Origin: Candidatus Bathyarchaeota archaeon
GTDB taxonomy: Archaea > Thermoproteota > Bathyarchaeia > Bathyarchaeales > Bathycorpusculaceae
DNA: 64,000 bases
Assembly (NCBI GenBank): GCA_963702095.1
Contig: OY969706.1
Coordinates: 2,368,001 to 2,432,000 of the forward strand
Direction: 5' to 3'
Shown here: in pieces, positions 8,641 to 52,565 of the stretch
Numbering within the stretch: the first letter of the stretch is position 1
Layout of the letters: each line of letters starts with the position of its first letter
Position numbers and translations under genes: made by a program
The notes under the pieces: generated by a model
What the model was told of the DNA's origin: nothing
What the model saw: only the letters and a program-made list of their open reading frames with translations
The model's database searches: none

Positions 8641-11600
8641 CTACCATTTTTTCCAAGGCAAATCATCCATGTACTCGTTTAAGGAGCGGATGCTGTTGCC
8701 GTTCTGGTTTTTCTGTTTCATAACATCCACCAACGCCTGCGCTAACTGGAGATTGGTGATGACGGGGATGTTGAATTCTACTGCTTGGCGTCGGATTGTG
8801 TAGCCGTCGGTTATGATCTCGTTTATGTTGCTGCGGCGGTTGGCAATGGGCACGTTGATAACGAGGTCGATTTTGCGTTCTTGAAGAAAGTCGAGAATGT
8901 TGGGTGTTACGTCGGGGTCTTTGACTTTATGCAGCACCGTCGCTGCTACGCCATGGGCACTTAAGACTTTGGCTGTGTTTGCGGTAGAGTAAATTTTGAA
9001 GCCCATATCTGCAAACGCCTGTGCGATTGGGACCACGCGGGCTTTACGTTCGACATCGCCGCCAACGCTGATAAGCACTGAGCCGCCTCTGGGAGGAATC
9101 GTAAACTCCGCAGACTGCAACGCCTTGGTAAAAGCATCTGCAAAACTTTCGCCGAGACACGCCACTTCGCCAGTGCTAAGCATCTCCACGCCTAAAACGG
9201 GGTCGGCACCGCTGAGCCGCATGAAACTGAACTGAGGCACTTTGACGCCCACGTGAGGTGCAACCTGCATGGGGGAGAGTTGAACGCCGTCGATTTTTTT
9301 GCCCAGCATCGCCAAAGTTGCGAGGTCAATGAGGTTTATGCCTCTGCATTTGCTTACAAAGGGCATTGAGCGGGAGGCGCGGAGGTTGCATTCGATGACG
9401 TTGACGACGTCGTCTTTGACGAGGTATTGGATGTTGTAGGGTCCGTGGATTCGCAGCGCTTTAACGATTTTTATGGTTGCGGTTTCGATGTCTTTCTGCA
9501 CTTCTGGTTTGAGTGCTTGCGGCGGGATAGTCATGGTTGCGTCGCCGCTGTGGACGCCTGCGTTTTCAACGTGTTCCATGATGGCGCCGATGAAAACGTT
9601 ATCGCCGTCTGAGACACCGTCAACTTCGACTTCTTTGGCTCGGGTGATGAATTTGCTGATAACCACCGGGTGGTCACGGGAAACCTTCGCAGCCAAATTA
9701 AGGAAGTTCTCGAGTGCGACTTCGTTGTAGGCGACACGCATCGCTGACCCTGAGAGCACATAGCTGGGTCGCACCAGTACAGGGAAGCCGATTTTTGTTG
9801 CAAACCGTTTGGCTTCTTCAATGCTCTGGAGCTTGCTCCAGCTGGGCTGGTGGATGTCAAGTTGATCGAGTAGCGCGCTGAATTTGCTGCGGTCTTCTGC
9901 CAAATCCACGTCCTGCGCAGATGTGCCCAATATGTTTGCGCCTGCCTCGCAGAGGGGCATGGAAAGGTTGTTGGGGATTTGTCCGCCGACGCTGGTGATG
10001 ACGCCCATGGGGTTTTCTTTGTCGTAGATGTCTAGGATACGTTCAACTGTGAGTTCTTCAAAGTAGAGTTTGTCAGAGATGTCGTAGTCTGTGCTGACGG
10101 TTTCAGGGTTGTAGTTGACCATTATGGCTTCTTTTATGCCGTTTTTCTTGAGTGCCCAAACCGTGTTGACGCCGCACCAGTCGAATTCCACGCTGCTGCC
10201 GATGCGGAAAACGCCTGCGCCCAAGACAATGACTTTGCTTTGGGTTTTGCTGAACTCTATGTCGTCTTCGTCTCCGCCATAGGTCATGTAGAGATAGTTG
10301 GTTTTCGCCGGCCACTCTGCCGCTAAAGTGTCAATTTGTTTTACGACTGGGAGGATTTTGTTGTTTTTGCGGTAGGTGCGGATGGTGGCTTCGTCGGTTT
10401 TTTGGCACACTGCGATTTGCTGGTCGCTGAAGCCGATACGTTTGGCTTCGCGGATGACTTCGGCTGCTTCGGAAGTGGCTAAGTTGAGGGTTTTTAGCTC
10501 CTGTTCCATGTTGAGGATGTTTTGGATTTTGTATAGGAAGAAGGGGTCGACGCCGCTTATACGGTAAATCTCCGTGATGGGGATTCCGATTTTTAGGGCT
10601 TTGCCGATTTTGTAGAGTCGCTCATCAGTTGGGTGCGCCATTTCGTCTCTGAGGCGCTCTTCAGATTCGGGTTCGTTATCTTCAGGGTTGCAGACTAAAC
10701 CGATTTTGCCTGTGTCCAGCATGCGCACGGCTTTTTGCAGTGCCTCTTCGAAGCATCTGCCAATAGCCATGACTTCGCCGACACTACGCATCTGTGGTCC
10801 AACGTGGCGGTCGGCGTTGCGGAATTTCTGGAGGTCCCAGCGGGGGATTTTAACGGTTATGTAGTCCAGTGCGGGTTCGAAGCATGCGGTTGTGACTTCG
10901 GTGACTTTGTTGATGAGTTCAGGCAGCGTGTAGCCTAAAGTGAGTTTGGTTGCGATGTAGGCAAGCGGATAACCTGTGACTTTGCTGGCTAAGGCGCTGC
11001 TACGTGACATTCGGCTGTTGACTTCGATGACACGGCATTCCTCTGATTTGGGATGCAGCGCCCACTGTATGTTGCATTCTCCGACTATGCCTAAAGCTCG
11101 GATAGCGTTAATGGAGATGGAGCGGATCTGGTGATATTCGCGGTTAGTCATGGTCTGCGAAGGCGCCACAACTATGCTGTCGCCAGTGTGGATGCCCATG
11201 GGATCAAAGTTTTCCATGTTACAAACGGTTAAACAGTTATCAGCGTAGTCACGCATAACTTCGTACTCAACTTCTTTCCAGTGCCCCACGTACTCTTCGA
11301 CGAGGACTTGGCGGATGCGACTCTGGGCGATGCCGATGGTAGCGATCTCTTTGAGTTCCTTCTGGTTATGGGCAACGCCTGCGCCTTTACCGCCCAACGT
11401 GTAAGCAACTCGGACCATGACGGGGTAGCCGATTTCGTCGGCGATTTCGAGCGCCTGTTTGACGCTGGTGGCGGTTCTGCTCTTTAGGTATGGGATACCT
11501 GCTTTCTGCATGGCTTGGCGGAACCGTTCACGGTCGCCTGTGTCTTCGATGGCTTGGACAGGGGTGCCTAAAACTTTAACGTTGTATTTTTGGAGGATGC

Positions 11601-11916
11601 CTGTTTTTTCGAGTTCTAAGCCGCAGTTAAGCGCGGTTTGCCCGCCGAAGCCTAAGAGGATGCCGTCGGGGCGTTCTTTAGCGATGACTTTTTCAACGTA
11701 TTCTGGGGTGACGGGGAGAAGGTAGACTTTGCCGCTGAGGCGGGGGTCGGTTTGGATGGTGGCGATGTTTGGGTTGATGATGACGGTTTCTATGCCGTCT
11801 TCTCGCAGCGCTTTTAGGCATTGGCTGCCGCTGTAGTCGAATTCGGCTGCTTCACCGATTTTGATGGCGCCGCTGCCTAGAACAAGGACTTTTTTGATCC
11901 AGTCGAACTTGGGCAT
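8641..11916 (-). CDS. carB: Carbamoyl-phosphate synthase large subunit
   Basis: 1091 aa; EFDYSGSQ, two ATP-grasp halves, NPETVSTDYD, C-terminal MGS domain. Confidence 0.97.
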   Translation of the reverse strand: MPKFDWIKKVLVLGSGAIKIGEAAEFDYSGSQCLKALREDGIETVIINPNIATIQTDPRLSGKVYLLPVTPEYVEKVIAKERPDGILLGFGGQTALNCGLELEKTGILQKYNVKVLGTPVQAIEDTGDRERFRQAMQKAGIPYLKSRTATSVKQALEIADEIGYPVMVRVAYTLGGKGAGVAHNQKELKEIATIGIAQSRIRQVLVEEYVGHWKEVEYEVMRDYADNCLTVCNMENFDPMGIHTGDSIVVAPSQTMTNREYHQIRSISINAIRALGIVGECNIQWALHPKSEECRVIEVNSRMSRSSALASKVTGYPLAYIATKLTLGYTLPELINKVTEVTTACFEPALDYITVKIPRWDLQKFRNADRHVGPQMRSVGEVMAIGRCFEEALQKAVRMLDTGKIGLVCNPEDNEPESEERLRDEMAHPTDERLYKIGKALKIGIPITEIYRISGVDPFFLYKIQNILNMEQELKTLNLATSEAAEVIREAKRIGFSDQQIAVCQKTDEATIRTYRKNNKILPVVKQIDTLAAEWPAKTNYLYMTYGGDEDDIEFSKTQSKVIVLGAGVFRIGSSVEFDWCGVNTVWALKKNGIKEAIMVNYNPETVSTDYDISDKLYFEELTVERILDIYDKENPMGVITSVGGQIPNNLSMPLCEAGANILGTSAQDVDLAEDRSKFSALLDQLDIHQPSWSKLQSIEEAKRFATKIGFPVLVRPSYVLSGSAMRVAYNEVALENFLNLAAKVSRDHPVVISKFITRAKEVEVDGVSDGDNVFIGAIMEHVENAGVHSGDATMTIPPQALKPEVQKDIETATIKIVKALRIHGPYNIQYLVKDDVVNVIECNLRASRSMPFVSKCRGINLIDLATLAMLGKKIDGVQLSPMQVAPHVGVKVPQFSFMRLSGADPVLGVEMLSTGEVACLGESFADAFTKALQSAEFTIPPRGGSVLISVGGDVERKARVVPIAQAFADMGFKIYSTANTAKVLSAHGVAATVLHKVKDPDVTPNILDFLQERKIDLVINVPIANRRSNINEIITDGYTIRRQAVEFNIPVITNLQLAQALVDVMKQKNQNGNSIRSLNEYMDDLPWKKW

Positions 11917-13061
11917 TAGTTGACCTCCAAGGTTTTAGCGAATTTGTCAAACAAGAGTTCAGTGTCGTAGGGTCCCGGCGACGCTTCAGGATGCCACTGC
12001 ACGGCGAAAACAGGCTTGTTTTTGCAGCGGATGCCCTCGGTGGTTTTGTCGTTGGGGTTGATGAACCAGGGTTCGAGACAGGTGTTTTTGAGTGAATCCA
12101 GGTTTATGGCGTAACCGTGGTTTTGGGTGGTGATGTAGCATCGGTTGTTGTATAAGTCTAGTGCCGGCTGGTTTTGGGCGCGGTGGCCAAATTTGAGTTT
12201 GTATGTGTCTCCGCCTAAGGCTAAGGCGAGGATTTGGGCTCCGAGGCAGATGCCCATTAGCGGGGTTTTCTCGCTGAGTTCCCGGATGGCGTCGATGGTT
12301 TTGACACATTTTTTGGGGTCGCCTGGACCGTTGCTTATGAATACGCCGTCTGGGTGGTAATCCAAGATTTCTTTAGCTGAGGTGTCATAGGGGACGCGGA
12401 CGACGTTTATGCCTCGTTTGAGGAGGTTGCGGATGATGCTGTACTTGACTCCGCAGTCGATTAATACAACGGTTTTTTTGCCATCTACACTGTAGGATAT
12501 GGGTTTCTTCACGGATACTTCTTTAACGAGGTCGGTTTGGTTGGGGTCAGCGATGTTTTGGCTGCTTTTAAGCATCGATTCTAAGTCTGGTTCAACGTCT
12601 TCTTCGAAAACCTGCAGGACCCCCAGCATGACACCGTGGGTTCGCAGTTTCTTTGTGAGGCGTCTGGTGTCTACGCCGTAGATGCCGGGGACGCCTTCGT
12701 CGGCAAGCCACTGATCTAGGGTGCGTGTGGATGCCCAGTGGAAAGGTTCCAGACATAACTCGTGAATAATTAAGCCTTGAGGCTGAATGTGATCGGATTC
12801 GAAAAAGAGCGGCAGCCCACGATCCATAACTTTGTCTGGGACGCCGTAGTTGCCAACCATGGGATAAGTGAAAGTTAAAACCTGCCCCTTATATGACGGG
12901 TCAGTTAAGGCTTCAGGGTACCCCACCATCTGCGTGGAGAAAACAACTTCGCCTGAAATTTTTGCTGTTGCGCCAAAACCTTTACCGGTAAATGACGTTC
13001 CGTCTTCGAGAAGCAGAACCGCTTTTTTATTATTCTTCAACGTGCTATGTTGTGGAGCCAA
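11916..13061 (-). CDS. carA: Carbamoyl-phosphate synthase small subunit
   Basis: LTDPSY, SNGPGDP, GICLG, QWHPEASPGP. Confidence 0.96.
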   Translation of the reverse strand: MAPQHSTLKNNKKAVLLLEDGTSFTGKGFGATAKISGEVVFSTQMVGYPEALTDPSYKGQVLTFTYPMVGNYGVPDKVMDRGLPLFFESDHIQPQGLIIHELCLEPFHWASTRTLDQWLADEGVPGIYGVDTRRLTKKLRTHGVMLGVLQVFEEDVEPDLESMLKSSQNIADPNQTDLVKEVSVKKPISYSVDGKKTVVLIDCGVKYSIIRNLLKRGINVVRVPYDTSAKEILDYHPDGVFISNGPGDPKKCVKTIDAIRELSEKTPLMGICLGAQILALALGGDTYKLKFGHRAQNQPALDLYNNRCYITTQNHGYAINLDSLKNTCLEPWFINPNDKTTEGIRCKNKPVFAVQWHPEASPGPYDTELLFDKFAKTLEVN

Positions 13062-13097
13062 AGCCCTATTACACCTATCAGTCTGAATTTTTAAGTT

Positions 13098-14588
13098 TTA
13101 CGTTTTCTTGCTCGTTGAGCGAGTGTATTCTTTAACAGTACAGTTGAGTGCGGTTTCGGCGGCGGCGAGGTCTGCTTTGAGTTTGGCGATGCCGGCTTTG
13201 CTTTCGGCGACGGCTTTTGTTTTTGTCTTGAGTGCCCTTTGAACTTCCGCGGGTGAAGGTCCGCCTTGCACTTTATATGTTTCGATTATTTTGCGTAAAT
13301 TTGTGCATGAAACTATGTCTTCGCCTCTAACCGCCAGCTTGATTCCCGCCGTTTCCAGGGCAACGTTAGCCAAGAGTTGAGGCGTGACATCGCTGAGCGT
13401 CTTGTTTTCGTCAATTAATGCCTTGACGAGTGCCCCAACGATCTTGTGTGAGGTGCGGAAAGCCACATCGTACTTGCCGACCAGCATGTTGGCGACTTCG
13501 GTGGCGGCGACAAAGCCCTTTGCAGCTTTCTCCTCAACTTTTTCTGTCTTGACTTTTATGTTGGGTACAAGCGCCCCAAAGATGTGCAGCGACGCTTCCA
13601 AGTTGTCAGTCACTGCCCAAAGCTTCGGCGTAACCTCTTGAAAATCCAAGTTGTACGTTGTCGGCAAACTCTTCACAATGGCAGCAGCAGCAACGAAATC
13701 GCCCAAAGCATAGCTTGCCCGTGCCCGGATGACTTCGAGGACTTCAGGGTTCTTTTTCTGGGGCATGATGCTGCTGGTCGAGGTGAATTCGTCGGGTAAC
13801 TCTATGGTGCCGAATTCGGTGGAGCTCCAGATGATGAGGTCTTCGGCGAAGCGGCTTAGGTTAATTGCCAACAGCGCCAGAGTTGCTTGGGTTTCGATGA
13901 TGAAGTCTCGGCTGCCCACTGCGTCAAGCGAGTTCTCCAAGACATCACCGAAGCCTAGGAGCCACGCGGTTTTTTTGCGGTTAATCGGGAAACTCGTAGT
14001 TGCCAAAGCACCCGCACCCAAGGGGCACAGGTTTACCCGTTCGTAGGCGCTTTGTAGCCGTTGCAGGTCGCGTCCCAACGCGTCGAAATGGAACAGCAAG
14101 TAGTGCGCGTAGGTTACGGGTTGCGCGGCTTGCAGGTGAGTGTACTGGAGGATGATTGTGTCGGTGTGTTTGGCAGCGGTTTCGAGGAGCGCCTGCTGCA
14201 TGCTAAGGATTTCCTGCATGATGCAAAGCATTTCTGTGCGCAGAGCCATGCGGATGGCGGTTGCGGTTTGGTCGTTGCGGCTTTTGGCGATGTGGAGGTT
14301 CCCGCCGACTTCAGGACCCGTCTCCGCCAAGACGGCTTCTTCGACTGCCATGTGCACGTCTTCGGCGTTGGGGTCAAGTTGGGCACTGCTGAGTTTCTGG
14401 AGGGCACACAGGAGTTTTACGCCGTCTTGCTGCTCTATGATTTTTTGTTCGAGGAGCATGGCGACGTGGGCTTTGTTGATGGCTAAAACAGCGTCGGCTA
14501 AGCGTGCGTCGTCTTTGCGGGACGAGCAGTATTTTGCTACATCCCCTCGGACATCGCCTAGTCTTCCGCCATGCAGCATCTTTGACAC
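13098..14588 (-). CDS. argH: Argininosuccinate lyase
   Basis: SRNDQ, YTHLQAAQP, SSIMPQKKNP. Confidence 0.96.
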   Translation of the reverse strand: MSKMLHGGRLGDVRGDVAKYCSSRKDDARLADAVLAINKAHVAMLLEQKIIEQQDGVKLLCALQKLSSAQLDPNAEDVHMAVEEAVLAETGPEVGGNLHIAKSRNDQTATAIRMALRTEMLCIMQEILSMQQALLETAAKHTDTIILQYTHLQAAQPVTYAHYLLFHFDALGRDLQRLQSAYERVNLCPLGAGALATTSFPINRKKTAWLLGFGDVLENSLDAVGSRDFIIETQATLALLAINLSRFAEDLIIWSSTEFGTIELPDEFTSTSSIMPQKKNPEVLEVIRARASYALGDFVAAAAIVKSLPTTYNLDFQEVTPKLWAVTDNLEASLHIFGALVPNIKVKTEKVEEKAAKGFVAATEVANMLVGKYDVAFRTSHKIVGALVKALIDENKTLSDVTPQLLANVALETAGIKLAVRGEDIVSCTNLRKIIETYKVQGGPSPAEVQRALKTKTKAVAESKAGIAKLKADLAAAETALNCTVKEYTRSTSKKT

Positions 14589-14612
14589 GTCTTAGCCTCC
14601 ATACAAGAAAAG

Positions 14613-15852
14613 TTAAGGTTTTTTGGCTTTAGCTTTGGGCTTCTTGCTTGCGGCTTTAAGCGAATTATACATCCGCGTCTGCAGCCCCCAGAGTTCAATG
14701 AAGCCTTTGCTGTAGCTTTGGTTGAAGCTGGTTTTGATGTTGTAGTTGGCGAGGTTTTTGTCGTATAGGCTGTTGGGTGAACTGCGTCCGATGACGATTA
14801 GGCTGCCCTTGAAGAGTTTGAGTTTGACTTCGCCGGTGACGTTTTCCTGTGAGTGGTTAATGTAGGCGTCTAAGTCGTCTTTGAGCGGGTCAACCCACAA
14901 CCCCGCATACGCCAAAAACACCCATTCTGCGTCGATTTGCTGTTTAAAGAGCACTTGATGTCGGGTCATAACCATCTTTTCAAGGTCCTTGTGGGCTTCC
15001 AAAATAACCAGCGCCGCTGGGCACTCGTAGACTTCGCGTGATTTTAAGCCGACGATGCGGTCTTCGATGTGGTCGATTCTGCCGACGCCATTTCGCCCAG
15101 CGACCTTGTTCATTTCTTCGATGAGCGCGAGGGGCTTCATTTTTTTGCCATTAACCGAGACGGGCACGCCTGCTTCGAAGCCGATGGTAACCACTTCCGG
15201 GGTGTTCGGCGCCTTCTCAGGCGAAGAAGTCCACTCATAAGCGTCCTCAGGCGGCTCATTGTTTGCGTCCTCAAGTAGTCCGCATTCGATGGCGCGTCCC
15301 CAAACAGAAGCATCTATGCTGTATTTTTTAGCGTTTTCACAGATGGGAATGCCTTTGGTTTTGGCGTACTCGATTTCTTCGTCACGTGTTAAACCCCATT
15401 CACGGACGGGGGCGAGGATTTGTTTGTCTGTTGCTAAAGACCCCAATGTGATGTCGAAGCGGACTTGGTCGTTTCCGCGTCCCGTGCAGCCATGCGCTAA
15501 GCCGTTTGCGCCTTCTTTCTCTGCGATTTCCACCATCTTTTTGGCGATGAGGGGGCGGCTTAGGCTGGTGCTGATGGGGTATTTGCCTTCGTAGAGGGCG
15601 TTGGCTTTGATAGCGGGGAAAATGTAGTCTTTGCAGAACTCTTCTTTGGCGTCGATGCTGAAGTGTTTTAGGACGCCGAGTTTATGTGCTTTTTCCTCTG
15701 CTGCTTCTAAGTCTTCGCCTTGACCTACATCGACTGTGACTGTGATGACTTGGGCGCCAAGTTTCTCTTGGAGGTACTTGATTAACACGGATGTGTCTAA
15801 TCCGCCGCTGTATGCTAATACGTATTTGTCGGTTATTTGCTTGTTCCCCCAT
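14613..15852 (-). CDS. argG: Argininosuccinate synthase (start uncertain; ATG at 15852 is out of frame by one G)
   Basis: VLAYSGGLDTS lies upstream of the annotated GTG; HGCTGRGNDQVRF, KSREVYE. Confidence 0.94.
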
Positions 15853-15891
15853 TTTTTGTTTGGAACTGTTTTCCTAACCTCAGGGGCTGTA

Positions 15892-15951
15892 TTTTTAAAG
15901 GTTGCGACTTTTTTGTTACTTAATAAGCTTTAAATGTCTTATTTGGGACAT
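15892..15951 (-). promoter_or_regulatory. argG promoter: two 18-bp boxes 30 bp apart followed by TATA (TTTAAAAA)
   Basis: Perfect palindrome TAAATGTC-N8-GACATTTA at 15931-15954; 44/60 ungapped identity to the lysW upstream region. Confidence 0.75.
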
Positions 15952-16045
15952 TTATCAGAAGAGTTTACGGTTCATTTCCTTAGTATTTAGTGGCTGCTCA
16001 ACCCTGTTTTTCCAAACAAAAGAATTTGAAGAAAAAGAAACTGGA

Positions 16046-16189
16046 TTACTGCTCTTTTGATTCAGATTTCATATCCCTCGGTTTCTTTCTCTCGGAAATT
16101 AGACCTACTGGATTCTTAGCTTTCCTTTCCAAATAAGCAGCATATTGCTCTGGCGTAAAGTCTTTCCTAAACTTATGTTCTTTACCCAA
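16046..16189 (-). CDS. Small charged hypothetical protein (47 aa)
   Basis: TTG start with AGGAG upstream; MGKEHKFRKDFTPEQYAAYLERKAKNPVGLISERKKPRDMKSESKEQ*. Confidence 0.5.
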   Translation of the reverse strand: MGKEHKFRKDFTPEQYAAYLERKAKNPVGLISERKKPRDMKSESKEQ

Positions 16190-16224
16190 ATTTTGTTTCT
16201 CCTGCGCCGCTGCCACCTAAATGC

Positions 16225-16401
16225 TCAAACTAGGGATGATGTCTTGCTATATCTAAATTTTACCGCAATAAACAGCGTCGCAACAAGCAAAGGCACAATA
16301 GCCAACCAAGATAACTCTGGAACGGAAGGAGATGGATTCGATATTAAGGTTGGATTAGGTAATATATTAGCGGTCGGGATAATGATGCTCTGAGTAGTTC
16401 T
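16225..16401 (-). pseudogene. Orphan C-terminal anchor fragment (VPEL motif, TM helix, basic tail)
   Basis: Translates RTTQSIIIP...SPSVPELSWLAIVPLLVATLFIAVKFRYSKTSSLV* with no start codon. Confidence 0.6.
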
Positions 16402-17218
16402 AAGGTGGTGGGGGCGGAGGAAAAGGTCGTCCGTTAATCAAACTATCGGTCTTTCGCCGTTTTATAATTAATAAACAAATAACAATAATCAAAACTGCAA
16501 AGATTAGGAAAGCTAAAATCAATAGAAAAATTATATCCGATGAAAAGAGACTTGCCCACCCTAATGTTAATGTCTGAGTGTCACTCCAACCGCTATCTGC
16601 ATATGAGACAAAATCCACTCCTGTTGGATACAGGAAAGCATAAGTTGTATATTGATAGCCAAAACTTGCTTCAACTTGAAAGTCTTCTTGACCGCCTGCT
16701 GGAATATAGACGTCAGCATACCCCATAATTATGTCGTTTGGGGAGCCTATAACTAAAGTCACAACTGTGTAATCGGAAGTTGATGCAAATACTCGAGTGA
16801 AAGAATTACCACCTTCATAAGTCGCTGTTGAAGTCCAAGGAACATTAGACGACCACCAATAATCCGAAAAGTGTCCCTTGGTGCGGATTGTATAGTACAT
16901 TTTCTCCACAGTACCGTTTGCCAAAGTAACAGATGTTAACGGGGGATTTACTATCTTTATGTCAACAGTTTCGTTTTTCACATACTGACCGCCACTTGTG
17001 TGGGTTAGTTGTTGACCTGAGAAAGGGTCTGTTGTTTGCGTTGTAGTAATTGGAGCCGTGTAAGAACGGTCGACAAATGTAACCGTAAACTCAGGAACAG
17101 ATGGTTTAGGTATTGTTTGAGCATTTGTAGGTTTAACTGTTAACAGGGTCAGACATGACATAGCGATGATTAAAGTTAGTAGTAATGCGAGAGTCTTGCT
17201 GATTTTACCCATATCCAA
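16400..17218 (-). CDS. Secreted, membrane-anchored hypothetical protein (PKPSVPEFT-type N-terminus)
   Basis: Signal peptide, Thr/Tyr-rich beta domain, C-terminal TM helix plus KRRK; AT-rich relative to flanks. Confidence 0.8.
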   Translation of the reverse strand: MDMGKISKTLALLLTLIIAMSCLTLLTVKPTNAQTIPKPSVPEFTVTFVDRSYTAPITTTQTTDPFSGQQLTHTSGGQYVKNETVDIKIVNPPLTSVTLANGTVEKMYYTIRTKGHFSDYWWSSNVPWTSTATYEGGNSFTRVFASTSDYTVVTLVIGSPNDIIMGYADVYIPAGGQEDFQVEASFGYQYTTYAFLYPTGVDFVSYADSGWSDTQTLTLGWASLFSSDIIFLLILAFLIFAVLIIVICLLIIKRRKTDSLINGRPFPPPPPP

Positions 17219-17289
17219 TTATTGACTATAGAAGCGATTAATAGTTTACTCAAATGGCTGCCTTTGAAGGCGACTCAACCGGGGCATTA

Positions 17290-17319
17290 AATAAGCTTTA
17301 AATGTTCCAATTGATACAT
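17290..17319 (+). promoter_or_regulatory. BRE/TATA of the ACT-domain gene followed directly by an ATGT-N10-ACAT box
   Basis: AATAAGCTTTAAATGTTCCAATTGATACAT; first 16 nt identical to 15922-15937. Confidence 0.65.
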
Positions 17320-17331
17320 CAAAGAAACATT

Positions 17332-17910
17332 ATGACAGTCGCCCAAAACGTCCGAAACCACCTCAGAAACAAGCCGTATCTTCTCGAAGCACTAGAAAAG
17401 GGCATCGTTAACCTAAGTGAGCTTTCAAGGCAGCTGCAGACGGAACTAAAAAGTGAAGATACAAGCGCCATAAAAGCCGCCCTGCGCCGCTACAGCGAAG
17501 AACTCCAGAAGCACCGCCAAAAGAGAGAGGAAAAAGTTTTGGCGCTCCTTAGACGTAGCGGCATAGCAGTCTACGACCGCAAATCAGTAATGATAACTGG
17601 AAAAGAGCTCGAAACCAAAACAGGCATGAAAGTGGATTTGCTCGACAAGTACGTTTACCTCTTGGACCGAAGCGATTTGCCCGAGCGAATTTCTTCGTTG
17701 GTTAAGCATGAGAACTGCACGATGATTGTGGTGCATTCCCCCGAGGAGTTGGAGAATACACCGGGGGTCGTCGCTTTTCTGGCTACGCTATTGGCGGAGC
17801 AGAACGTGAACATCGTCGAGTTCATTTCCTGCTGGACAGAAACCATAATGGTGGTTGAGAAGAAGGATAGCCTCAAAACCTACGAGGTACTATCAAACCT
17901 AGTCGGCTAA
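17332..17910 (+). CDS. Archaeal ACT-domain protein with helical (HTH-like) N-terminus; putative amino-acid-responsive regulator
   Basis: IVNLSELSR..AIKAALRRY N-terminus; TPGVVAFLATLLAEQNVNIVEFISCWTE ACT signature; start placed at ATG 17332, about 30 nt after TATA. Confidence 0.8.
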   Translation: MTVAQNVRNHLRNKPYLLEALEKGIVNLSELSRQLQTELKSEDTSAIKAALRRYSEELQKHRQKREEKVLALLRRSGIAVYDRKSVMITGKELETKTGMKVDLLDKYVYLLDRSDLPERISSLVKHENCTMIVVHSPEELENTPGVVAFLATLLAEQNVNIVEFISCWTETIMVVEKKDSLKTYEVLSNLVG

Positions 17911-17923
17911 GGGTAATGAGCGT

Positions 17924-18331
17924 TTAGTGGATTCTTTCAGTTAAACCGTCGAAGCCATGGTCAAAGCTCATTATCTGTTTTATGCCTCGACTCTCCATCA
18001 ATGCTAAAGAGTTACAGTCGGTAAAGCTAAGGGGTTTATCTTTAAAGTCCCTGAATTTTTTCCATGTATGATTAAATGCATCCTCTGTTACCCATATTTT
18101 AGTGATGCGAGGAGATTCAATGATGTATTTTCCTAAGTCGATGGCTAAATCTTTTCGTTTTGTTCGAGCTAAAGCGGTAGTTACTGCTTCATCGATGATG
18201 TAGTCGGATGTGAATATTGCCCCAAAATCGCCATTTAGGGCTTGCTTGAAGAGTTCTCTGGCTCTTGAGTGATGGTTGTCAACGCTGTTGTTTAATGCAA
18301 CAAAAATGCCGGTATCAACAAAAACAGCCAT
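17924..18331 (-). CDS. vapC: PIN-domain toxin (VapC family)
   Basis: VFVDTG, IIDEAVT, LSFTDC, SFDHGF acidic PIN residues. Confidence 0.92.
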   Translation of the reverse strand: MAVFVDTGIFVALNNSVDNHHSRARELFKQALNGDFGAIFTSDYIIDEAVTTALARTKRKDLAIDLGKYIIESPRITKIWVTEDAFNHTWKKFRDFKDKPLSFTDCNSLALMESRGIKQIMSFDHGFDGLTERIH

Positions 18332-18340
18332 GGTTATCTA

Positions 18341-46236: not shown

Positions 46237-46647
46237 CTACCAGTTGCGCAGTACGACCATGGTGTTGGTTTTCATTATGCCTTCGACGCGGCGGATTTTT
46301 TCTATGCATTCGTTTACTTCGGTAACATTCATGCCGGTGATGACCGCGACTATGTCGTATTCGCCTGTGACTTCGTAGATGGTTTCCACGTTGGGTATGG
46401 CTTGGATTTTCTTGGAAACTTCTAAGGTGGGTTGGGAGGGGTTGGTGGCGAGGAGGGTGATTGCTTGGGCACCTTCGGCGACGCCGACTTTTACGGTGAA
46501 TTTGCGGATGACGCCTTCGTCGGTTAGGGTTTTGATGCGTTTGCGGACTGCGCCTTCGGAGAGTCCGATTTTGCTGCCGATGTCAGCGTAGCCGGCTCGG
46601 GAGTCGTCTTTGAGGTTTTTTATGATTTGTTTATCTTTTTCGTCCAT
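46237..46647 (-). CDS. Lrp/AsnC family regulator (LysM-like), divergent from lysW
   Basis: MDEKDKQI, LSEGAVRKRI, YEVTGEYD. Confidence 0.9.
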   Translation of the reverse strand: MDEKDKQIIKNLKDDSRAGYADIGSKIGLSEGAVRKRIKTLTDEGVIRKFTVKVGVAEGAQAITLLATNPSQPTLEVSKKIQAIPNVETIYEVTGEYDIVAVITGMNVTEVNECIEKIRRVEGIMKTNTMVVLRNW

Positions 46648-46777
46648 ACGTTTGCCCCGTCTTATGTTGCGGTAAAATAATTTAACGTTTTCCATACTTG
46701 AGTTTGGGAGTTGTTGCGGTTTTCGTTGTGGTGGAGTGGGCAGGATGTTGTTTTCGGTTGGGTTTTGACTGTAAAAT

Positions 46778-46837
46778 GCGTATCAAATAGGACATTAGAA
46801 CCCCATAAAGTAACAGATAAGTCACAATGTTTAAAAA
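46778..46837 (+). promoter_or_regulatory. lysW promoter: two 18-bp boxes 30 bp apart followed by TATA (TTTAAAAA)
   Basis: 44/60 ungapped identity to the argG upstream region. Confidence 0.75.
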
Positions 46838-46892: not shown

Positions 46893-47102
46893 ATGATTAA
46901 ACAAGCAAATCAACCTGAAGTAAAAGCCTTCACGGCAAAATGTCCAGACTGCGACGCACAACTCGACGTACCAGCAGACACTGAAAAAGGCGAAATCCTA
47001 AGTTGCCCCAGCTGTGGACTTGAACTCGAAGTCAAACAGGTCAAAGGCGGTTGCGTAGACCTTCAAGAACTCACCATTGAAGGCGAAGACTGGGGCGAAT
47101 AA
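46893..47102 (+). CDS. lysW: Amino-group carrier protein LysW
   Basis: CPDC..CPSC Zn ribbon and C-terminal EDWGE. Confidence 0.96.
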   Translation: MIKQANQPEVKAFTAKCPDCDAQLDVPADTEKGEILSCPSCGLELEVKQVKGGCVDLQELTIEGEDWGE

Positions 47103-47175
47103 GCAGTATCCACCAAACTCTTCTTTTAAACCACCCTTTTAAGGATAAACCTTTTTTCACGGACGGCACCAAGCG

Positions 47176-48357
47176 ATGAGTATTGCACTTCTCTACGAAC
47201 GCTCGGAAAACGACGAAAACGGCATAAAACTCACCGCAGAGCAACTTGGCATCGACCTCACCTTTATTCCCTTCCGAAAAATCGCGCTCTCCATCAGCAA
47301 AGACGGGTTCCACGCTAAAACCAAAGGCAAAGACTACACCCAGACCTTCCAAGACACCAAAGTCGTGCTTAACCGGGCGCAGAGCAAGAACCGCCGTCTC
47401 CAAGCCTCCTACATCATGGAGATGCTGGGCAAAAAAACGCTTAACTCATCGCAAATCGAGTTTTTATGTTACAGTAAACTCCGCACACTCCTCAACCTGT
47501 ACAAAGAGGGGTTGCCGATTCCCAAAACCGTTTTTGTACCCTGCGACGCCACGGACGTCATGAAAAACGGCAGAGAAATCCACAACCAAAAAGACATCGC
47601 TGACCTCTTTGAGGCAGAGTTTCCACTCAGCGAGGGCATTGTGATTAAGGCGGATGCGGGGACACATGGCAAAATGATTATGCTCTCCAAGAACCGTGAG
47701 GAGTTGGAAGCTAACATCAAAGAAACCAAGCCGGGCATCATCAACCCCATCGGCGTAGTGGCACAGGAATTGGTGCAGAAATGGTTCTACGACCTGCGCA
47801 TAATCGTCTTTAAGGAAAAAGGCAAACAGCCCACATGTTACCACACCGCGATGGCTCGGGCAGGCTTCAAAGATTTCCGCACCAACACTTTCCTAGGCAA
47901 CCTCGTATTCCACTCAAAATTACCCACACCCATCCAAGAATTGGCGGTAAAATGCGGCGAAACCCTGGGCAAAGGCAGTGACGCCTACATATTCGCCTTA
48001 GACGCCATGGTCAATGTAGGCGACCATAAAAACGTTGACGAAGCCTATCTCAAACAGCAGCTGGATATGGCGGCGCAGGCTTGGCTCAACGTGCAGAAGG
48101 TTAAGCAGGACGAAACCCGCCTCACTGACTTCAAAGCGTGGAACAGCAAACTGGAAGCTGCCTTCAAATCTTATAAGGCGACGGCTGCATACGAGAACAT
48201 TAACCGCATAATAGAGGAGAGCGTGGCGCAGAATCAGAAGGCACTGGTGTTTCATGAATCCAACAGTTGCCCTGAATTCTGGGAAAACACGCGACTCGCA
48301 ACAGGCTTAAACGTGGCAGAGCCCCTGCTTAAAATGGCGGCAAGTTTAACACAGTAA
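47176..48357 (+). CDS. Divergent LysX/ArgX-like ATP-grasp ligase
   Basis: SKLRT, LPIPKT, QELV..DLR, FRTN, HESNSCPEF; directly follows lysW. Confidence 0.8.
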   Translation: MSIALLYERSENDENGIKLTAEQLGIDLTFIPFRKIALSISKDGFHAKTKGKDYTQTFQDTKVVLNRAQSKNRRLQASYIMEMLGKKTLNSSQIEFLCYSKLRTLLNLYKEGLPIPKTVFVPCDATDVMKNGREIHNQKDIADLFEAEFPLSEGIVIKADAGTHGKMIMLSKNREELEANIKETKPGIINPIGVVAQELVQKWFYDLRIIVFKEKGKQPTCYHTAMARAGFKDFRTNTFLGNLVFHSKLPTPIQELAVKCGETLGKGSDAYIFALDAMVNVGDHKNVDEAYLKQQLDMAAQAWLNVQKVKQDETRLTDFKAWNSKLEAAFKSYKATAAYENINRIIEESVAQNQKALVFHESNSCPEFWENTRLATGLNVAEPLLKMAASLTQ

Positions 48358-48387
48358 CACTAACATAACAGAGGAGAGAAAACAGAA

Positions 48388-49437
48388 ATGCGAATTGGAA
48401 TAATCGGTGGTTCAGGATACGTTGGCAGCGAACTCTTGCGGCTGCTCCTTATGCACCCACAGGTCGAGGTAACAATGGTTACTTCACGACAGCAAGCAGG
48501 AGAATTCGTCTTCAACGCCCACCCAAACCTAAGAGGCATAACACAACTCAAATTTGTCCCCCAAGACATGACTGAACTCCAGAAAAACTGTGACCTCGTA
48601 TTCACAGCCACCCCACACGGCGGCTCACAGAACCTCGTGCCCAAACTGTTGGAGGCTGGACTCAAAGTCATTGATATGAGCGCCGATTTCCGCTTAAAAA
48701 ACCCAGTTGACTATGAGACCTACTACGGCTGGAAACACGTCCACCCCGAAATGCTAAAAGACGCTGCCTACGGCTTGCCCGAGTTGCATCGGGAAGAAAT
48801 CAAGAAGGCAAAGCTGGTCGCGTGTCCAGGATGTGAAGCAACAGCGGCGATTTTGGGCTTAGCACCCATCGTGAAAGCTGGGTTGATTGACAAAGACCAT
48901 GTCGTCGTTGACCTTAAAGTGGGTTCGTCAGGCAGCGGCAGCAAACCCACCCCCGCCAGCCACCACCCTGAACGCTCCAGCGGTGTACGCCCCTACAAAG
49001 TCGTTGGGCACCGCCACATCGCCGAAGTCGAACAGGAACTTGCTCCCCTTGGCCAACCAGTCAAAATCAGCTTCACCCCACACGCCGTAAACATAATCCG
49101 CGGCATACTCGCCACCATACACACTTTCCCCCAAAAAAAAATCGAAAACAAAGACCTCTGGAAAGCATTCCGCGGCATGTACGGCAACGAACCATTTATA
49201 CGCATAGTCAAGTACCTCAAGGGACCCTACCAGCTGCCAGACCCCAAAACTACCATGGGCACCAACTATTGTGATGTCGGCTTCGAAATCGACGAACACG
49301 CCAACCGCCTCATCCTATTCTCCGCCCTAGACAACATGGTGAAGGGCGCAGCGGGACAGGGCGTCCAATGCCTCAACTTAGTCATGGGTATCGATGAGAC
49401 CACAGGCCTCAAGAGCACCGGGTTCCACCCCATATAG
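48388..49437 (+). CDS. lysY: LysW-aminoadipyl/glutamyl-phosphate reductase (LysY/ArgC)
   Basis: GGSGYVG, DMSADFRL, ACPGC, DNMVKGAAGQ. Confidence 0.92.
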   Translation: MRIGIIGGSGYVGSELLRLLLMHPQVEVTMVTSRQQAGEFVFNAHPNLRGITQLKFVPQDMTELQKNCDLVFTATPHGGSQNLVPKLLEAGLKVIDMSADFRLKNPVDYETYYGWKHVHPEMLKDAAYGLPELHREEIKKAKLVACPGCEATAAILGLAPIVKAGLIDKDHVVVDLKVGSSGSGSKPTPASHHPERSSGVRPYKVVGHRHIAEVEQELAPLGQPVKISFTPHAVNIIRGILATIHTFPQKKIENKDLWKAFRGMYGNEPFIRIVKYLKGPYQLPDPKTTMGTNYCDVGFEIDEHANRLILFSALDNMVKGAAGQGVQCLNLVMGIDETTGLKSTGFHPI

Positions 49438-50256
49438 GTGACTGATATGTTGCTCGTAATCAAAATGGGCGGATCCATCCTCAAAGAAGGCGCATCCAAC
49501 GAACTCGTAGAGGACCTCAAAGAAGTCTCCAAACAACACAAAATTGTCCTTGTCCACGGAGGCGGAGCCGAAGTCACCGAAATCGCTTCTAAATTAGGCA
49601 AAGAGCAGAAATTCATCATATCACCCGAAGGGTTCCGCAGCCGCTACACAGACAAAGAAACCATCGAAATCTACACTATGGTTATGGCGGGCAAAATGAA
49701 CAAGCAAATTGTCCTCGCCCTAGAAGCCCAGGGCATACCTGCCGTTGGACTCAGCGGATTAGACGCGGCGATTCTTAGGGCCGAGCGCAAACTAAAGCTC
49801 ATCGCGGTGGACGAGCGAGGACGAAAAAAAGTCATCGACGGCGGCTACACTGGCAAAATCACCCAAGTCAACGCCGAATTACTCAACCTGCTCCTCGAAA
49901 AAGGCTACTTGCCCATCGTTACTCCGATTGCGCTGAGCCAAGACAACGAACCGCTAAACGTGGACGGTGACCGCACCGCAGCCATCATTGCAGGTGCATT
50001 AAAAGCCGACACACTCATCATGCTCACCGACGTAGAGGGCTTAATACTTAAAGGCGAACGGGTCCCCAAAATCGCTGCTACAGAAGTCAAAGAAATCGTA
50101 TCCAAGATCGGCGGCGGCATGAGCACCAAAATTCACGCGGGCTTAGAAGCGCTCAATCAGGGCGTCGGAGAAGTCCTCGTTACATCCGGAACCGTCAAGC
50201 AACCGATAACTTCAGTGTTAAATCATCAAGTTGGGACTGTGATAACTAGTGAATGA
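49438..50256 (+). CDS. lysZ: LysW-aminoadipate/glutamate kinase (LysZ/ArgB)
   Basis: KMGGS, VHGGG, SPEG..SRYTD, LNVDGDR. Confidence 0.92.
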   Translation: MTDMLLVIKMGGSILKEGASNELVEDLKEVSKQHKIVLVHGGGAEVTEIASKLGKEQKFIISPEGFRSRYTDKETIEIYTMVMAGKMNKQIVLALEAQGIPAVGLSGLDAAILRAERKLKLIAVDERGRKKVIDGGYTGKITQVNAELLNLLLEKGYLPIVTPIALSQDNEPLNVDGDRTAAIIAGALKADTLIMLTDVEGLILKGERVPKIAATEVKEIVSKIGGGMSTKIHAGLEALNQGVGEVLVTSGTVKQPITSVLNHQVGTVITSE

Positions 50257-51466
50257 TAAAGAAATAATGGAAGCCGAAGATCATTATTTAGCAAACGTAT
50301 TTTCCAAAAAACCAGTCGTCATCACTAACGGCAAAGGCGCTCTGGTATGGGACATCAACGGCAAAGAATACGTGGATTGCTCAAGCAGTTACGGTGTCGC
50401 AGCGTTGGGGCACTGTCACCCAAAAATTGTGGAAGCCGTCAAAGCCCAAGCTGAACAGCTTATCACCTGCCATGGCTGCTACTATAACGACAAACGCGCA
50501 GAATTCATCGATAAACTCCTTAAAATCACCCCCAAAAGCCTCAACAAAGCCTTCCTAAGCAACAGCGGAGCCGAAAGCGTCGAATGCGCACTTAAACTGG
50601 CGCGTAAAGCCACGGGCAAAACAGAAATCATCGCGTTAATGGGTGCTTACCATGGCAAAACCATGGGTGCCTTGTCGGTGACATGGGATAAAAAATACCG
50701 TGAACCCTTCATGCCGCTTATCCCCGACATCAAACATGTCTCACCTGAGGGCTCAGCGAAAGTCCGCGAAGCCATCACCGAGAAAACCGCCGCAATCATT
50801 ATGGAACCCATCCGTGGCGAAGGCGGCATCCGCGTTCCACCAGACGGTTACTTACAAGAAGTCCGCGAAATCTGCAACCGACGCGGCGTCCTTTTAATCT
50901 TTGATGAAGTACAAACCAGTTTTGGACGCACCGGCAAGGTGTTTGGCTGCGAAAACTGGGGCGTCACACCAGACATAATGTGCCTTGCTAAACCCTTTGC
51001 AGGCGGCTTGCCCATCGGCATAACCGTCGCACGAGAAGATCTCATGTCCACCCTAAAAGTCGGCGAACACTCCACCACTTTTAGCGGAAGCCCCTTAGTC
51101 TGTGCTGCAGGATGCGCCGCCATCGACGCATTGATTGATGAGAAACTGGCTGATAAAGCCGCCTCAAACGGCAAATACTTCAAAACCCAACTTGAAGGAT
51201 TAGCGGCAAAACATAGAATCGTCAAAGAAGTCCGTGGCTTAGGTTTGATGTTGGGTATGGAGTTGCGTTTTGACGTTTACGGCGTCATCAAGAAGACACT
51301 TGACAGGGGTGTGCTTATTATCGACGCAGGCAGAACCGTCGTGCGTATTCTGCCGCCGCTTGTTATTACTAGACCGCAGATTGACCGAGCCATAACCGCC
51401 TTAGATGAAGCATTGGAGGAAGAAGAAACTGAGCGAGCAAACAGCAGCGGTACGGTTCCTAACTAA
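50249..51466 (+). CDS. lysJ: LysW-semialdehyde aminotransferase (LysJ/ArgD)
   Basis: NSGAES, EPIRGEGG, FDEVQT, LAKP. Confidence 0.9.
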   Translation: MNDKEIMEAEDHYLANVFSKKPVVITNGKGALVWDINGKEYVDCSSSYGVAALGHCHPKIVEAVKAQAEQLITCHGCYYNDKRAEFIDKLLKITPKSLNKAFLSNSGAESVECALKLARKATGKTEIIALMGAYHGKTMGALSVTWDKKYREPFMPLIPDIKHVSPEGSAKVREAITEKTAAIIMEPIRGEGGIRVPPDGYLQEVREICNRRGVLLIFDEVQTSFGRTGKVFGCENWGVTPDIMCLAKPFAGGLPIGITVAREDLMSTLKVGEHSTTFSGSPLVCAAGCAAIDALIDEKLADKAASNGKYFKTQLEGLAAKHRIVKEVRGLGLMLGMELRFDVYGVIKKTLDRGVLIIDAGRTVVRILPPLVITRPQIDRAITALDEALEEEETERANSSGTVPN

Positions 51467-52565
51467 CCTGTTGGGTATCTATAGCCCATCGGGTCAAGAA
51501 CAGAGTATAGCCAACTTTTTAGCGCAGCGAATGGAAAAAATGGGTTTCGAAGTAGGCGTAGATGCAATAAGCAATGTCATCGGAGTCGTCGGCGAAGGCG
51601 AACCCGTAATCTTGCTCTGCGGACACATGGATACCGTTTCGGGTCATTTGCCACTGCGGATTGAGGAGGGCAAAATCTATGCTCGAGGCGCAGTAGACGC
51701 CAAAGGTCCCCTAGCAGCAATGGTCATGGCGGCGTTAGCGGCAAGCAAAGACCCCCATTTTCAAGGAAAAATCCTCGTCGCCTCCGTTGTTGAGGAAGAA
51801 GCCACCAGCAAAGGAGTACGTCACCTTATAACTCAGGGTATCAAAGCTGACTACGCCATCTTCGGGGAGCCAAGCGGCGTCGAAAACGTTACTATCGGCT
51901 ACAAAGGCCAAATCCAACTTAAAATCACCATTACAACCGAAACAGGGCATGCATCCACACCTTGGATGTACGATAACGCGTTGGAGAAGGCGTATGAGTT
52001 GTGGGAGCAAATTCGGATGCACTCGTCTTACCCGTCTTTGGATCCCTCAGTTAGTCCCTATAAAGCCGTCACCGCATGTCTTGTACGTCTCATCGGCGGG
52101 GAAGCCACCTCGGTTATTCCTTTCGAAGCGGAATTGAACCTTGACATCCGCGTTCCCATACAGTTCTCAACAGCCAAAGTCAATGAGCAACTAGACAAAA
52201 TCATCGCCAAATACCAAGAGGCTAACCCGAAAATCGGGGTCAAACACCAAGTCATGGACACGGTGGAACCATTTGAAGTTGACAAGTCCTCTCCGCTGGT
52301 GCATGTGATGTCTTCTTCAGTGCGCAAAGTCCTAGGTAAACCCGCTACACTGCTGCATAAAACTGGCACAGGAGACATGAACATCCTAGGCAAATCCATG
52401 AACCTGCCCATAGTAACCTACGGACCCGGCGACAGCCACCTTGACCACACAATCGACGAACACATAGAAATTAGCGAGTACCTCCAAGCCATCGAAGTTT
52501 ATAAAGAAACCTTACTGCGTCTATCTGAGTTGTATAACATCAAGAATGAAAAACAGGCAACCTGA
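51405..52565 (+). CDS. lysK: LysW-lysine/ornithine carboxypeptidase (LysK/ArgE, M20); real start possibly CTG at 51429
   Basis: GHMDTV, GRGAVDAKG-like ARGAVDAKGP, VEEE, GEPS, YGPGDSHLDHT. Confidence 0.9.
   Translation: MKHWRKKKLSEQTAAVRFLTNLLGIYSPSGQEQSIANFLAQRMEKMGFEVGVDAISNVIGVVGEGEPVILLCGHMDTVSGHLPLRIEEGKIYARGAVDAKGPLAAMVMAALAASKDPHFQGKILVASVVEEEATSKGVRHLITQGIKADYAIFGEPSGVENVTIGYKGQIQLKITITTETGHASTPWMYDNALEKAYELWEQIRMHSSYPSLDPSVSPYKAVTACLVRLIGGEATSVIPFEAELNLDIRVPIQFSTAKVNEQLDKIIAKYQEANPKIGVKHQVMDTVEPFEVDKSSPLVHVMSSSVRKVLGKPATLLHKTGTGDMNILGKSMNLPIVTYGPGDSHLDHTIDEHIEISEYLQAIEVYKETLLRLSELYNIKNEKQAT

Follow-up and report, generated by a model that had tools for sequence, protein, structure and literature searches.

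A DUF7523-tandem ACT protein as the best candidate arginine regulator of a bathyarchaeal group, and a bipartite module at its presumed target promoters

A 64,000-nucleotide stretch of a Candidatus Bathyarchaeota genome (assembly GCA_963702095.1, contig OY969706.1, forward-strand positions 2,368,001 to 2,432,000; hereafter the window) contains a gene for a small protein with an N-terminal DUF7523 domain and a tandem ACT-like region, which we call the ACT gene and the ACT protein. On the basis of comparisons of sequences across related genomes, this protein appears to be the best candidate arginine regulator for this archaeal group, and we consider it on balance somewhat probable that it is a DNA-binding factor. 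Its putative operator is a bipartite module of two boxes, Box A and Box B, that lies just ahead of the TATA boxes of the argG-argH-carAB and lysW operons, and a copy of Box A also lies in the promoter of the ACT gene itself. An earlier note on this DNA had proposed that the protein is an amino-acid-sensing, autorepressing transcription factor that acts as a functional analogue of ArgR and reads a 20-nucleotide box at these three promoters. The linkage of the gene to argG and our observation that the type of motif follows the ACT subfamily strengthen this proposal, but the helix-turn-helix (HTH) that it included was not found, and two of the three sites proved to be duplicates of each other.

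The bipartite module at the argG and lysW promoters

The operons, boxes, and TATA boxes in question are located in the window as follows.

8641..15836, minus strand: presumed argG-argH-carA-carB operon (Pfam and start codon analysis)
14613-15836, minus strand: argG, with an apparent ATA start
13098-14588, minus strand: argH
11916-13061, minus strand: carA
8641-11916, minus strand: carB
15951-15890, minus strand: argG module including the TATA box (gap-free promoter alignment)
15933..15952, no strand assigned (20-mer of the earlier note on the plus strand): Box A copy at the argG promoter, a perfect inverted repeat AATGTC-N8-GACATT
15902..15919, minus strand: Box B of argG, TTGCGACTTTTTTGTTAC on the plus strand
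15890..15899, minus strand: argG TATA box, TTTAAAAATA on the minus strand, 2 nucleotides from Box B
46893..52565, plus strand: lysW operon, with lysW, a lysX-like gene, argC, a [LysW]-glutamate/aminoadipate kinase, a transaminase, and a deacylase (NCBIfam)
46779-46836, plus strand: lysW module including the TATA box (gap-free promoter alignment)
46777..46796, plus strand (20-mer of the earlier note on the minus strand): Box A at the lysW promoter
46809-46826, plus strand: Box B of lysW, 23.3 bits in the matrix scan described below
46830-46836, plus strand: lysW TATA box TTTAAAA, matching the pattern with 0 mismatches and spaced as at argG
17301..17320, plus strand: Box A copy at the ACT-gene promoter, with the core TGTTCCAATTGATACA at 17303-17318

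A gap-free alignment of 13 argG and 12 lysW promoters from different genera revealed a single shared arrangement of Box A, a spacer, Box B, 2 nucleotides, and TTTAAAA. The consensus of Box A is TGTWYCAWWTGGRACA and that of Box B is TGTWACAAAWAAGTC, also written TGTWACAAAWAAGTCRCAA. Together they form a 48-bp module composed of an 18-nucleotide Box A, a 12-nucleotide spacer (14 nucleotides under narrower box edges), and an 18-nucleotide Box B, with the box starts 30 bp apart, and the TATA box lies 63 nucleotides ahead of the start codon at both argG and lysW. Box B of argG is conserved in 13/13 loci of the family, and Box A of lysW is conserved in 12 loci with lysM next to lysW and in 3 further loci without lysM. 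The 3' portion of Box B probably doubles as the transcription factor B (TFB) recognition element (BRE), which is expected immediately ahead of a TATA box. Because the 3' end of Box B falls at this position, some of its conservation may reflect the core promoter.

We confirmed the presence of the three 20-mers of the earlier note at 17301-17320 and 15933-15952 on the plus strand and at 46777-46796 on the minus strand, and by our own count the ACT-gene box is identical to the argG box at 13/20 positions and to the lysW box at 14/20. A loose consensus allowing up to three mismatches was not enriched (5 matches against 3.17 expected, with 27 of 100 shuffles reaching 5), and a looser genome-wide pattern gave fewer matches than its reversed control. 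Position matrices were derived from 24 modules found elsewhere (at 13 argG and 11 lysW promoters of other genomes), with the genome of the window excluded. This genome (G000) comprises 2,937,366 bases in a single contig and is scored as 90% complete. When the whole of G000 was scanned, the three boxes were the top three Box A matches, at 30.1, 22.2, and 21.9 bits. The best match in the genome was Box A of the ACT gene (30.1 bits, with a matrix made from relatives only), followed by that of lysW (22.2 bits) and that of argG (21.9 and 20.0 bits on its two strands), and Box B of argG was the best Box B match in the genome at 26.3 bits. The fourth-best Box A match (18.9 bits) lay within an open reading frame (ORF). 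Of the further matches below threshold, 7 of 8 for Box A and 3 of 5 for Box B fell inside long ORFs. The complete module occurs at only two places in G000, argG and lysW. The three boxes are real, yet they represent two independent sites rather than three; since the boxes of argG and of the ACT gene go back to a single ancestral site as paralogues, they count as one site plus lysW. We regard it as close to certain that the cis-regulatory module is real.

The lysW promoters of relatives showed two further features. A third module of Box A, Box B, and TATA precedes a second lysW-like carrier gene (MINAINPN...KCPDC) at G013:C30:2607-2633 and G190:C4:1585-1611 (loci L191 and L192), one genome being from the genus of the window and the other from another genus, with no counterpart in G000. 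This arrangement suggests that separate arginine and lysine LysW operons are under common control in some relatives. In addition, at three loci from as many genera (L066, L069, and L070, of G364, G349, and G360), approximately 150 extra bases follow the module and its TATA box before lysW begins, and these bases contain a second TATA-like element, ccgaaaaccttataaaaa, that is seen also beside dapA in other genomes.

The start position of argG (15834-15850 of the window, minus strand; L002-L022 and L093-L109) apparently has a noncanonical codon. Among 35 distinct loci, the codon was ATA in 24, ATT in 2, ATC in 2, ATG in 3, and GTG in 2, and the remaining 2 have an ATG one codon upstream. This position is the homologue of the start in other genera, where it is ATG or GTG, and lies 7 to 9 nucleotides past a conserved GGGGGA run, and argG in the window has no in-frame canonical start upstream. 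A frameshift at this start was ruled out by the conserved ATA at the start position across loci. The weak argG start codon could provide a second, translational layer of control.

The ACT gene and its linkage to argG

The ACT gene and the DNA that separates it from argG in the window have the following features.

17332..17910, plus strand: ACT gene, the candidate regulator, 192 amino acids, with DUF7523 at residues 1-76 and the tandem ACT-like region at residues 77-192
17297..17302, plus strand: TATA-like TTTAAA of the ACT gene, 35 nucleotides ahead of the ATG
17290..17319, plus strand: duplicated promoter segment, partner of 15922-15951 in a 30-bp local alignment
15953..17289, no strand: lineage-specific insertion of approximately 1.3 kb that parts argG from the ACT gene
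16400-17218, minus strand: ORF in the insertion, 272 amino acids, by its translation predicted to be secreted and C-terminally anchored

The ORF finder opens the ACT frame at 17302, at an ATG within the box; in that reading, the DUF7523 match starts at residue 12. Translation cannot begin at the box ATG in 14 of 34 related loci, 2 of which lack it while in the other 12 it is out of frame or runs into a stop, and we therefore place the start at 17332 rather than at 17302. The same observation rules out that the box is conserved as a coding N-terminal extension. The position of the box between TATA and start codon, described for the window by the earlier note, was found at all 34 parsed loci, including those of 3 genomes where the gene no longer adjoins argG. 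In 31 of the 34 loci, the ATG follows TATA at a distance of 31 to 35 nucleotides. As archaeal transcripts begin roughly 25 nucleotides past the TATA box, the ACT mRNA would have little or no leader, and Box A would fill the stretch from TATA to the transcript start.

Both in the genus of the window and elsewhere in the family, in 12 more genera, the ACT gene lies next to argG in divergent orientation. Of 34 loci examined, 31 show this arrangement complete with the module, the misses being one locus at a contig end (L003) and two with the gene apart from argG (L013 and L023). The TTTAAA of the ACT gene lies within the spacer of the module on the opposite strand. Within the genus, an orthologue with 76 to 96% identity was found in 23 of 24 other genomes, with no match in G004, which is 71% complete. 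Across the phylum, argG lies within 1.5 kb in 13 of 26 loci of the ACT-protein family, and lysW-lysX does so in one. Two Thermoproteota loci, L054 and L056, belong to complete genomes. The family numbers roughly 830 members, and a control search also hit a DUF7523 gene of Haloferax volcanii, whose arg cluster is HVO_0041-0049. In work attributed to Korbel and colleagues from 2004, conserved divergent gene pairs are said to predict relations between regulators and targets.

Co-occurrence was analyzed with one genome per genus from 45 genera of the family, many of them incomplete, so that "not found" is not "absent." We detected argG in 16 of the 45 genera and an ACT-family match in the same 16, of which 13 had full-length orthologues (61 to 86% identity) and 3 had a distant type. 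The pattern of Box B plus TATA with up to three mismatches was present in exactly the 13 genera with a full-length orthologue, usually twice, and in 0 of the 32 remaining genera, and a reversed control pattern was present in 0 of 46 genomes. The LysM-like Lrp protein (E <= 1e-30) was also detected in 16 of the 45 genera, but these formed a different set, with G359 having Lrp without argG and G356 (53% complete) being without Lrp. Thus, the gene, argG, and the module coincide exactly in this sample, an outcome of the co-occurrence check suggested by the earlier note that, together with the divergent arrangement at 31 of 34 loci, ties the ACT gene to arginine biosynthesis more tightly than that note had seen.

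The insertion that parts argG from the ACT gene in the window is absent between these genes in 31 of the 34 related loci. Segments 15922-15951 and 17290-17319 align across 30 bp with the leading 16 bases identical, and the upstream region of the ACT gene in relatives is the upstream region of argG in the window. In G000, the ACT gene has kept Box A and not Box B. The insertion junction of G014 is identical to that of G000, and G006 shows another break; in all three of these genomes, where the gene has moved away from argG, TATA and Box A still precede the ACT gene. These comparisons indicate that the 1.3-kb insertion split an ancestral divergent promoter and duplicated 30 bp in G000, leaving argG and the regulator gene with one Box A each. 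The ORF within the insertion encodes a signal-like N terminus, a proline run, and a hydrophobic C-terminal segment and had no Pfam or NCBIfam match.

The motif types, the ACT protein, and the Lrp protein

The earlier note had named the Lrp protein encoded beside lysW as the competing reader of the box. Its gene and the element beside it are located as follows.

46237..46647, minus strand: Lrp-family gene, LysM-like (NCBIfam NF040947 LysM at 170.7 bits, cut-off 180; HTH_AsnC and RAM)
46714..46728, no strand: Lrp/LysM-type semi-palindrome ttGCGGTTTTCGTtg, beside the lysM promoter and apart from Box A and Box B

A second subfamily of ACT proteins, 221 to 246 amino acids in length, is encoded in G334, G319, and G356 and at loci L025, L026, L028, and L029 from four other families of the order, with a 237-amino-acid member at locus L091, and it is homologous to the ACT-protein family over the full length (hhalign probability 99.8%, E 9e-28, 205 columns). 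All seven loci have a different motif between the TATA-like element and the start, consisting of TTTTGGTCA, a gap of 23 to 31 nucleotides (25 nucleotides in G319), and TGACCAAAA, with the second half-site in direct orientation in L028. The gene is divergent from argG in six of the seven loci and from lysW in the seventh. The lysW promoters of G334 and G319, which were both examined, carry the second motif, and lysW of G319 is on another contig. A loose TGGTCA-N18-32-TGACC pattern was as frequent as its reversed control in five genomes and gives no regulon for the second motif, for which the sites reported here are those read directly. With regard to whether the motif tracks the ACT gene or the Lrp gene, the question on which the earlier note had staked its proposal, we found that the motif type goes with the ACT subfamily. 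The Lrp recognition helix is unchanged, as GLSEGAVRKRIK is identical in G000, G350, and G349 and in G319, which has the second motif type. For the Lrp protein of G334, the nearest counterpart is the one from G369, with 76% identity.

The LysM-type element beside lysM is conserved as TGCGRATTYCGTT in 12/12 lysM-lysW intergenic regions and reads GTACGAATTTCGTTG in L069. The core of the element in the window, as well as GTACGAATTTCGTTG of L069, resembles closely the LysM boxes of Sulfolobus, GTACGATTAGCGTAC and GTTCGTATGTCGAAC, which are of the GTWCG-N5-CGWAC type in Table 1 of the excerpted source (PMC3597687). In G369, G368, and G335, lysW adjoins a homoaconitase-like gene and Lrp is encoded beside dapA, and lysW keeps Box A and a variant of Box B. 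A second conserved block, GCCGTTTTCGGAAA (gttgttttcggttggg at 46730-46760 in the window; also in L061-L068), lies between the LysM-type box and Box A and may be a further Lrp site.

The ACT protein matches Pfam DUF7523 (PF24367; 48.1 bits against a cut-off of 27, E 2e-12, over model positions 1-76 of 158 only) and Pfam ACT_7 (33.9 bits against a cut-off of 27, E 3e-8). Among 79 diverse homologues, 73 matched DUF7523 and 76 matched ACT_7. An AlphaFold2 (AF2) model based on these 79 homologues, with a predicted local distance difference test (pLDDT) value of 96.6, contains helices at residues 3-11, 15-23, 28-39, and 44-74, followed by a tandem ACT-like fold. The beta-alpha-beta-beta-alpha-beta ACT fold is present in the model, with a Foldseek probability of 1.00 to aspartokinase ACT pairs, and residues ~60-192 matched aspartokinase regulatory domains with E values from 7e-7 (3tvi) to 4e-5 (also 3ab4, 2dtj, and 4go5) and a template modeling (TM) score of 0.5. 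The model and these matches thus agree with the helical N terminus and the ACT domain of the earlier note, with the correction that ACT is tandem, and the C-terminal tandem ACT is predicted to be a standard amino-acid-binding module. No HTH_AsnC or RAM match was found in Pfam or NCBIfam for the ACT protein (17332-17910), so that an Lrp/AsnC (LysM) identity is not supported, and no ArgR model of these two databases matched it.

The N-terminal 78 residues folded alone with a pLDDT of 92.5 and, by our own count, contain 16 lysines or arginines versus 10 aspartates or glutamates; V7, N27, K48, A50, and R53 are invariant across 19 N-terminal sequences. Visual inspection suggests a likeness of helices 3 and 4 to a stretched HTH. 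A Protein Atlas search with residues 1-78 returned only unnamed or DUF7523 clusters, with scores of up to 0.87. In a wide search with VIA, the best Z score of the N-terminal domain was 6.3, for a spliceosomal chain, followed by FF domains at 5.8 and 5.5, all noise according to the tool, and approximately 15 of the 50 listed entries were HTH or homeodomain proteins with Z scores of 4.2 to 5.5, within the stated noise of the tool. A predicted complex of ArgG and the ACT protein had a score of 0.00 and a mark of 0.32, which counts neither for nor against binding.

Several observations weigh against the ACT protein being the DNA-binding reader of the module. No HTH model in Pfam or NCBIfam matched the protein, whose N terminus is only a DUF in these databases; a PDB profile search gave nothing below E 0.04 and nothing relevant; and Foldseek with the isolated N-terminal domain gave nothing below E 3. 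Together with VIA, these searches detected no known HTH or DNA-binding fold in the domain for which the earlier note had proposed structure prediction. The aspartokinase-like C-terminal half makes a non-DNA-binding role structurally plausible. In addition, the motif in the promoter of each ACT gene is physically linked to that gene, which makes co-variation trivial there and leaves the unlinked lysW promoters as the independent witnesses, 15 with the first motif type and 2 with the second. In a tree of ArgG, G319 and G334 stand beside the clade of G369, G368, and G335 (80/87 support) with the other second-type genomes outside, implying only one or two switches of motif and subfamily, and related genomes are non-independent samples. 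Upstream of the probable argF (G000:C1:2148630), we saw neither Box A nor Box B by eye. Finally, our literature searches on ACT domains in archaeal arginine regulation yielded no characterized arginine-specific regulator of Thermoproteota and no characterized member of the ACT-protein family, and a search with the family names yielded only two phylogenomic lists, both via COG2150.

An alternative explanation is that the ACT protein is an enzyme-regulating amino-acid sensor, like aspartokinase beta or the acetohydroxyacid synthase (AHAS) small subunit, and that another transcription factor reads the boxes and controls the ACT gene as a member of its regulon. Such a role is consistent with the similarity of the C-terminal 130 residues to aspartokinase regulatory domains, with the NCBIfam matches of the protein, which are to aspartate kinases only and below threshold, and with an N-terminal domain without a recognized DNA-binding fold. 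In the excerpted Appendix 6 of a GapMind 2026 preprint, Thermoproteota ACT proteins encoded beside a catalytic subunit are reassigned as regulatory subunits. We consider this explanation unlikely, however, given that the ACT gene is divergent from and never co-directional with argG in all lineages examined, that the motif type at the unlinked lysW promoter switches along with the ACT-protein subfamily, that the N-terminal domain is basic and conserved without a catalytic signature, and that we saw no other regulator gene in the arg clusters inspected.

Less probable still is that the LysM-like Lrp (46237-46647) reads Box A and Box B and coordinates argG, lysW, and the ACT gene as Sulfolobus LysM does lysW. 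This Lrp comes almost to the LysM equivalog cut-off, Box A is semi-palindromic with an A/T-rich center as are Lrp sites, and LysM of Sulfolobus, which has many other targets as well, is an activator of lysW that binds upstream of BRE/TATA (PMC3597687, as excerpted). However, it is the other element near the lysM promoter that is much nearer to the Sulfolobus LysM boxes, the module on lysW is kept in the three genomes with Lrp beside dapA, the recognition helix does not change between genomes of either motif type, and G359 has Lrp with neither argG nor the module found. Very improbable, finally, is the absence of any dedicated factor, with the similarity of the boxes arising from duplication of promoter DNA and from shared core signals (BRE, TATA, and initiator). 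Two of the three boxes in the window do belong to the 30-bp duplication, the expected BRE and the 3' part of Box B overlap, and TTTAAA lies within the module. In contrast, the unlinked promoters of argG and lysW resemble each other in 13 genera over approximately 48 bp upstream of TATA, at constant spacing, while the flanks diverge, the module is found at no other promoter of G000, and both promoters change jointly to an unrelated motif in another lineage.

Proposed mechanism and related systems

In the mechanism that we propose, the ACT gene would encode an amino-acid-responsive, most likely arginine-responsive, transcription factor composed of the DUF7523 four-helix domain and the tandem ACT region. 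The protein would recognize the bipartite operator, Box A together with Box B, next to BRE/TATA at the promoters of argG-argH-carAB and lysW-argCBDE, where the boxes would act as two similar sites that, being 30 bp apart, lie on about the same face of the helix. At its own promoter, protein bound to Box A would cover the stretch from TATA to the start and block recruitment of polymerase, and this negative autoregulation is the step of the mechanism best grounded in position. At argG and lysW, a complex of the unliganded protein just upstream of BRE/TATA would activate transcription when the amino acid is scarce, and binding of the amino acid to the ACT domains would release the protein from these operators. 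With the alternative sign, the complex would repress by occluding TFB and TBP. We favor activation at argG and lysW because archaeal activators such as LysM act from that position (PMC3597687, as excerpted). The repressing position that the earlier note had described for the box fits the promoter of the ACT gene, whereas at argG and lysW the place upstream of TATA fits activation at least as well as it does ArgR-like repression. As to the ligand, the presence of argG, argH, and carAB in the regulon points to arginine, and the LysW operon could add lysine.

A broader proposal, which we hold tentatively and regard as somewhat short of probable, is that DUF7523 is a new DNA-binding domain that together with tandem ACT forms a widespread archaeal family of transcription factors responding to amino acids. 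Those members linked to argG would serve Thermoproteota as the arginine regulator, analogous but not homologous to ArgR; one complex would repress its own gene and activate argG and lysW, and the operator would have been re-specified at least once with all targets following. The candidate brings together a concrete protein, an operator defined to 48 bp, and a small regulon consisting of argG-argH-carAB, the lysW operon, and the ACT gene. If the ACT protein is indeed the regulator, a DUF gains a role in DNA binding and archaeal transcription gains a new family of one-component sensors. It would also provide a natural case of a regulator and operator changing specificity together, with two motif types at the same three promoters, and a case of one bound complex playing opposite roles on two back-to-back archaeal promoters.

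ArgR consists of a winged-helix domain and a domain for hexamerization and arginine binding and is a repressor with arginine as co-repressor. The ACT protein would resemble bacterial ArgR/AhrC in its proposed arginine-sensing, autoregulated control of several arg operons via paired boxes. Unlike ArgR, the ACT protein has no sequence or fold relation to that family, and the location of the module upstream of TATA suggests activation. The regulatory (beta) domains of aspartate kinases share the tandem ACT region and gave the best structural match to residues ~60-192 of the ACT protein, but they are without the 76-residue helical N terminus and act on an enzyme rather than on DNA. The control that we propose resembles that by LysM of the Sulfolobus lysWXJK operon in being an amino-acid-responsive control of the LysW pathway from a place just upstream of BRE/TATA (PMC3597687, as excerpted). 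According to the same excerpt, LysM is an activator released by the end product. In contrast to the ACT protein, LysM has an HTH and RAM fold and a 15-bp box, and in these genomes the LysM-type box is separate, near lysM.

In the excerpted account of TrpY from Methanothermobacter thermautotrophicus (PMC6737238), this small tryptophan-responsive protein binds DNA with its N-terminal part and carries an ACT domain at the C terminus, and its gene is divergent from the trp operon with boxes in the overlapping promoters. Without ligand, TrpY represses its own gene, and with tryptophan it represses both promoters (PMC6737238). The ACT gene is likewise divergent from a biosynthetic operon, with boxes in the overlapping promoter and in its own promoter, a likeness of organization and not of descent. 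A nearly identical name, a further point of likeness to TrpY, is assigned by the Joint Genome Institute (JGI) to a relative 90% identical to the ACT protein (P0045). Unlike TrpY, however, the protein of the window has tandem ACT, and the pathway is arginine/LysW. The authors of the TrpY study state in the excerpt that almost no Crenarchaeota genome has a TrpY homologue (PMC6737238).

For comparison, we located two Thermococci orthologues of TK1227 (L171 and L172) with a degenerate form of a published primer, which gave 33 loci, the other 31 being chance matches in bacteria and one nanoarchaeon. These TrpY homologues have 166 amino acids, one ACT domain, and an ordinary-looking HTH. In hhalign, the 79-sequence profile aligned with the Thermococcus TK1227 orthologue over 37 ACT columns only, with a probability of 52%, and the N-terminal domains of the ACT protein and the TrpY homologue did not align, in both cases with a single-sequence template that limits sensitivity. 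The ACT protein appears TrpY-like on paper, but these alignments do not place it in the TrpY family.

Other genes of the window lie downstream of the ACT gene. A PIN-domain gene at 17924-18331 on the minus strand directly follows it and is preceded by a 118-amino-acid ORF at 18341-18697 without a family match; these two minus-strand genes (17924-18697) probably form a VapBC-type toxin-antitoxin pair. A complete aspartokinase with ACT domains is also encoded within the window, at 21502-22911. Two overlapping ORFs, at 20434-20949 (NAD-binding) and 20844-21482 (catalytic), together make up homoserine dehydrogenase, a split that may be due to a frameshift or an assembly error.

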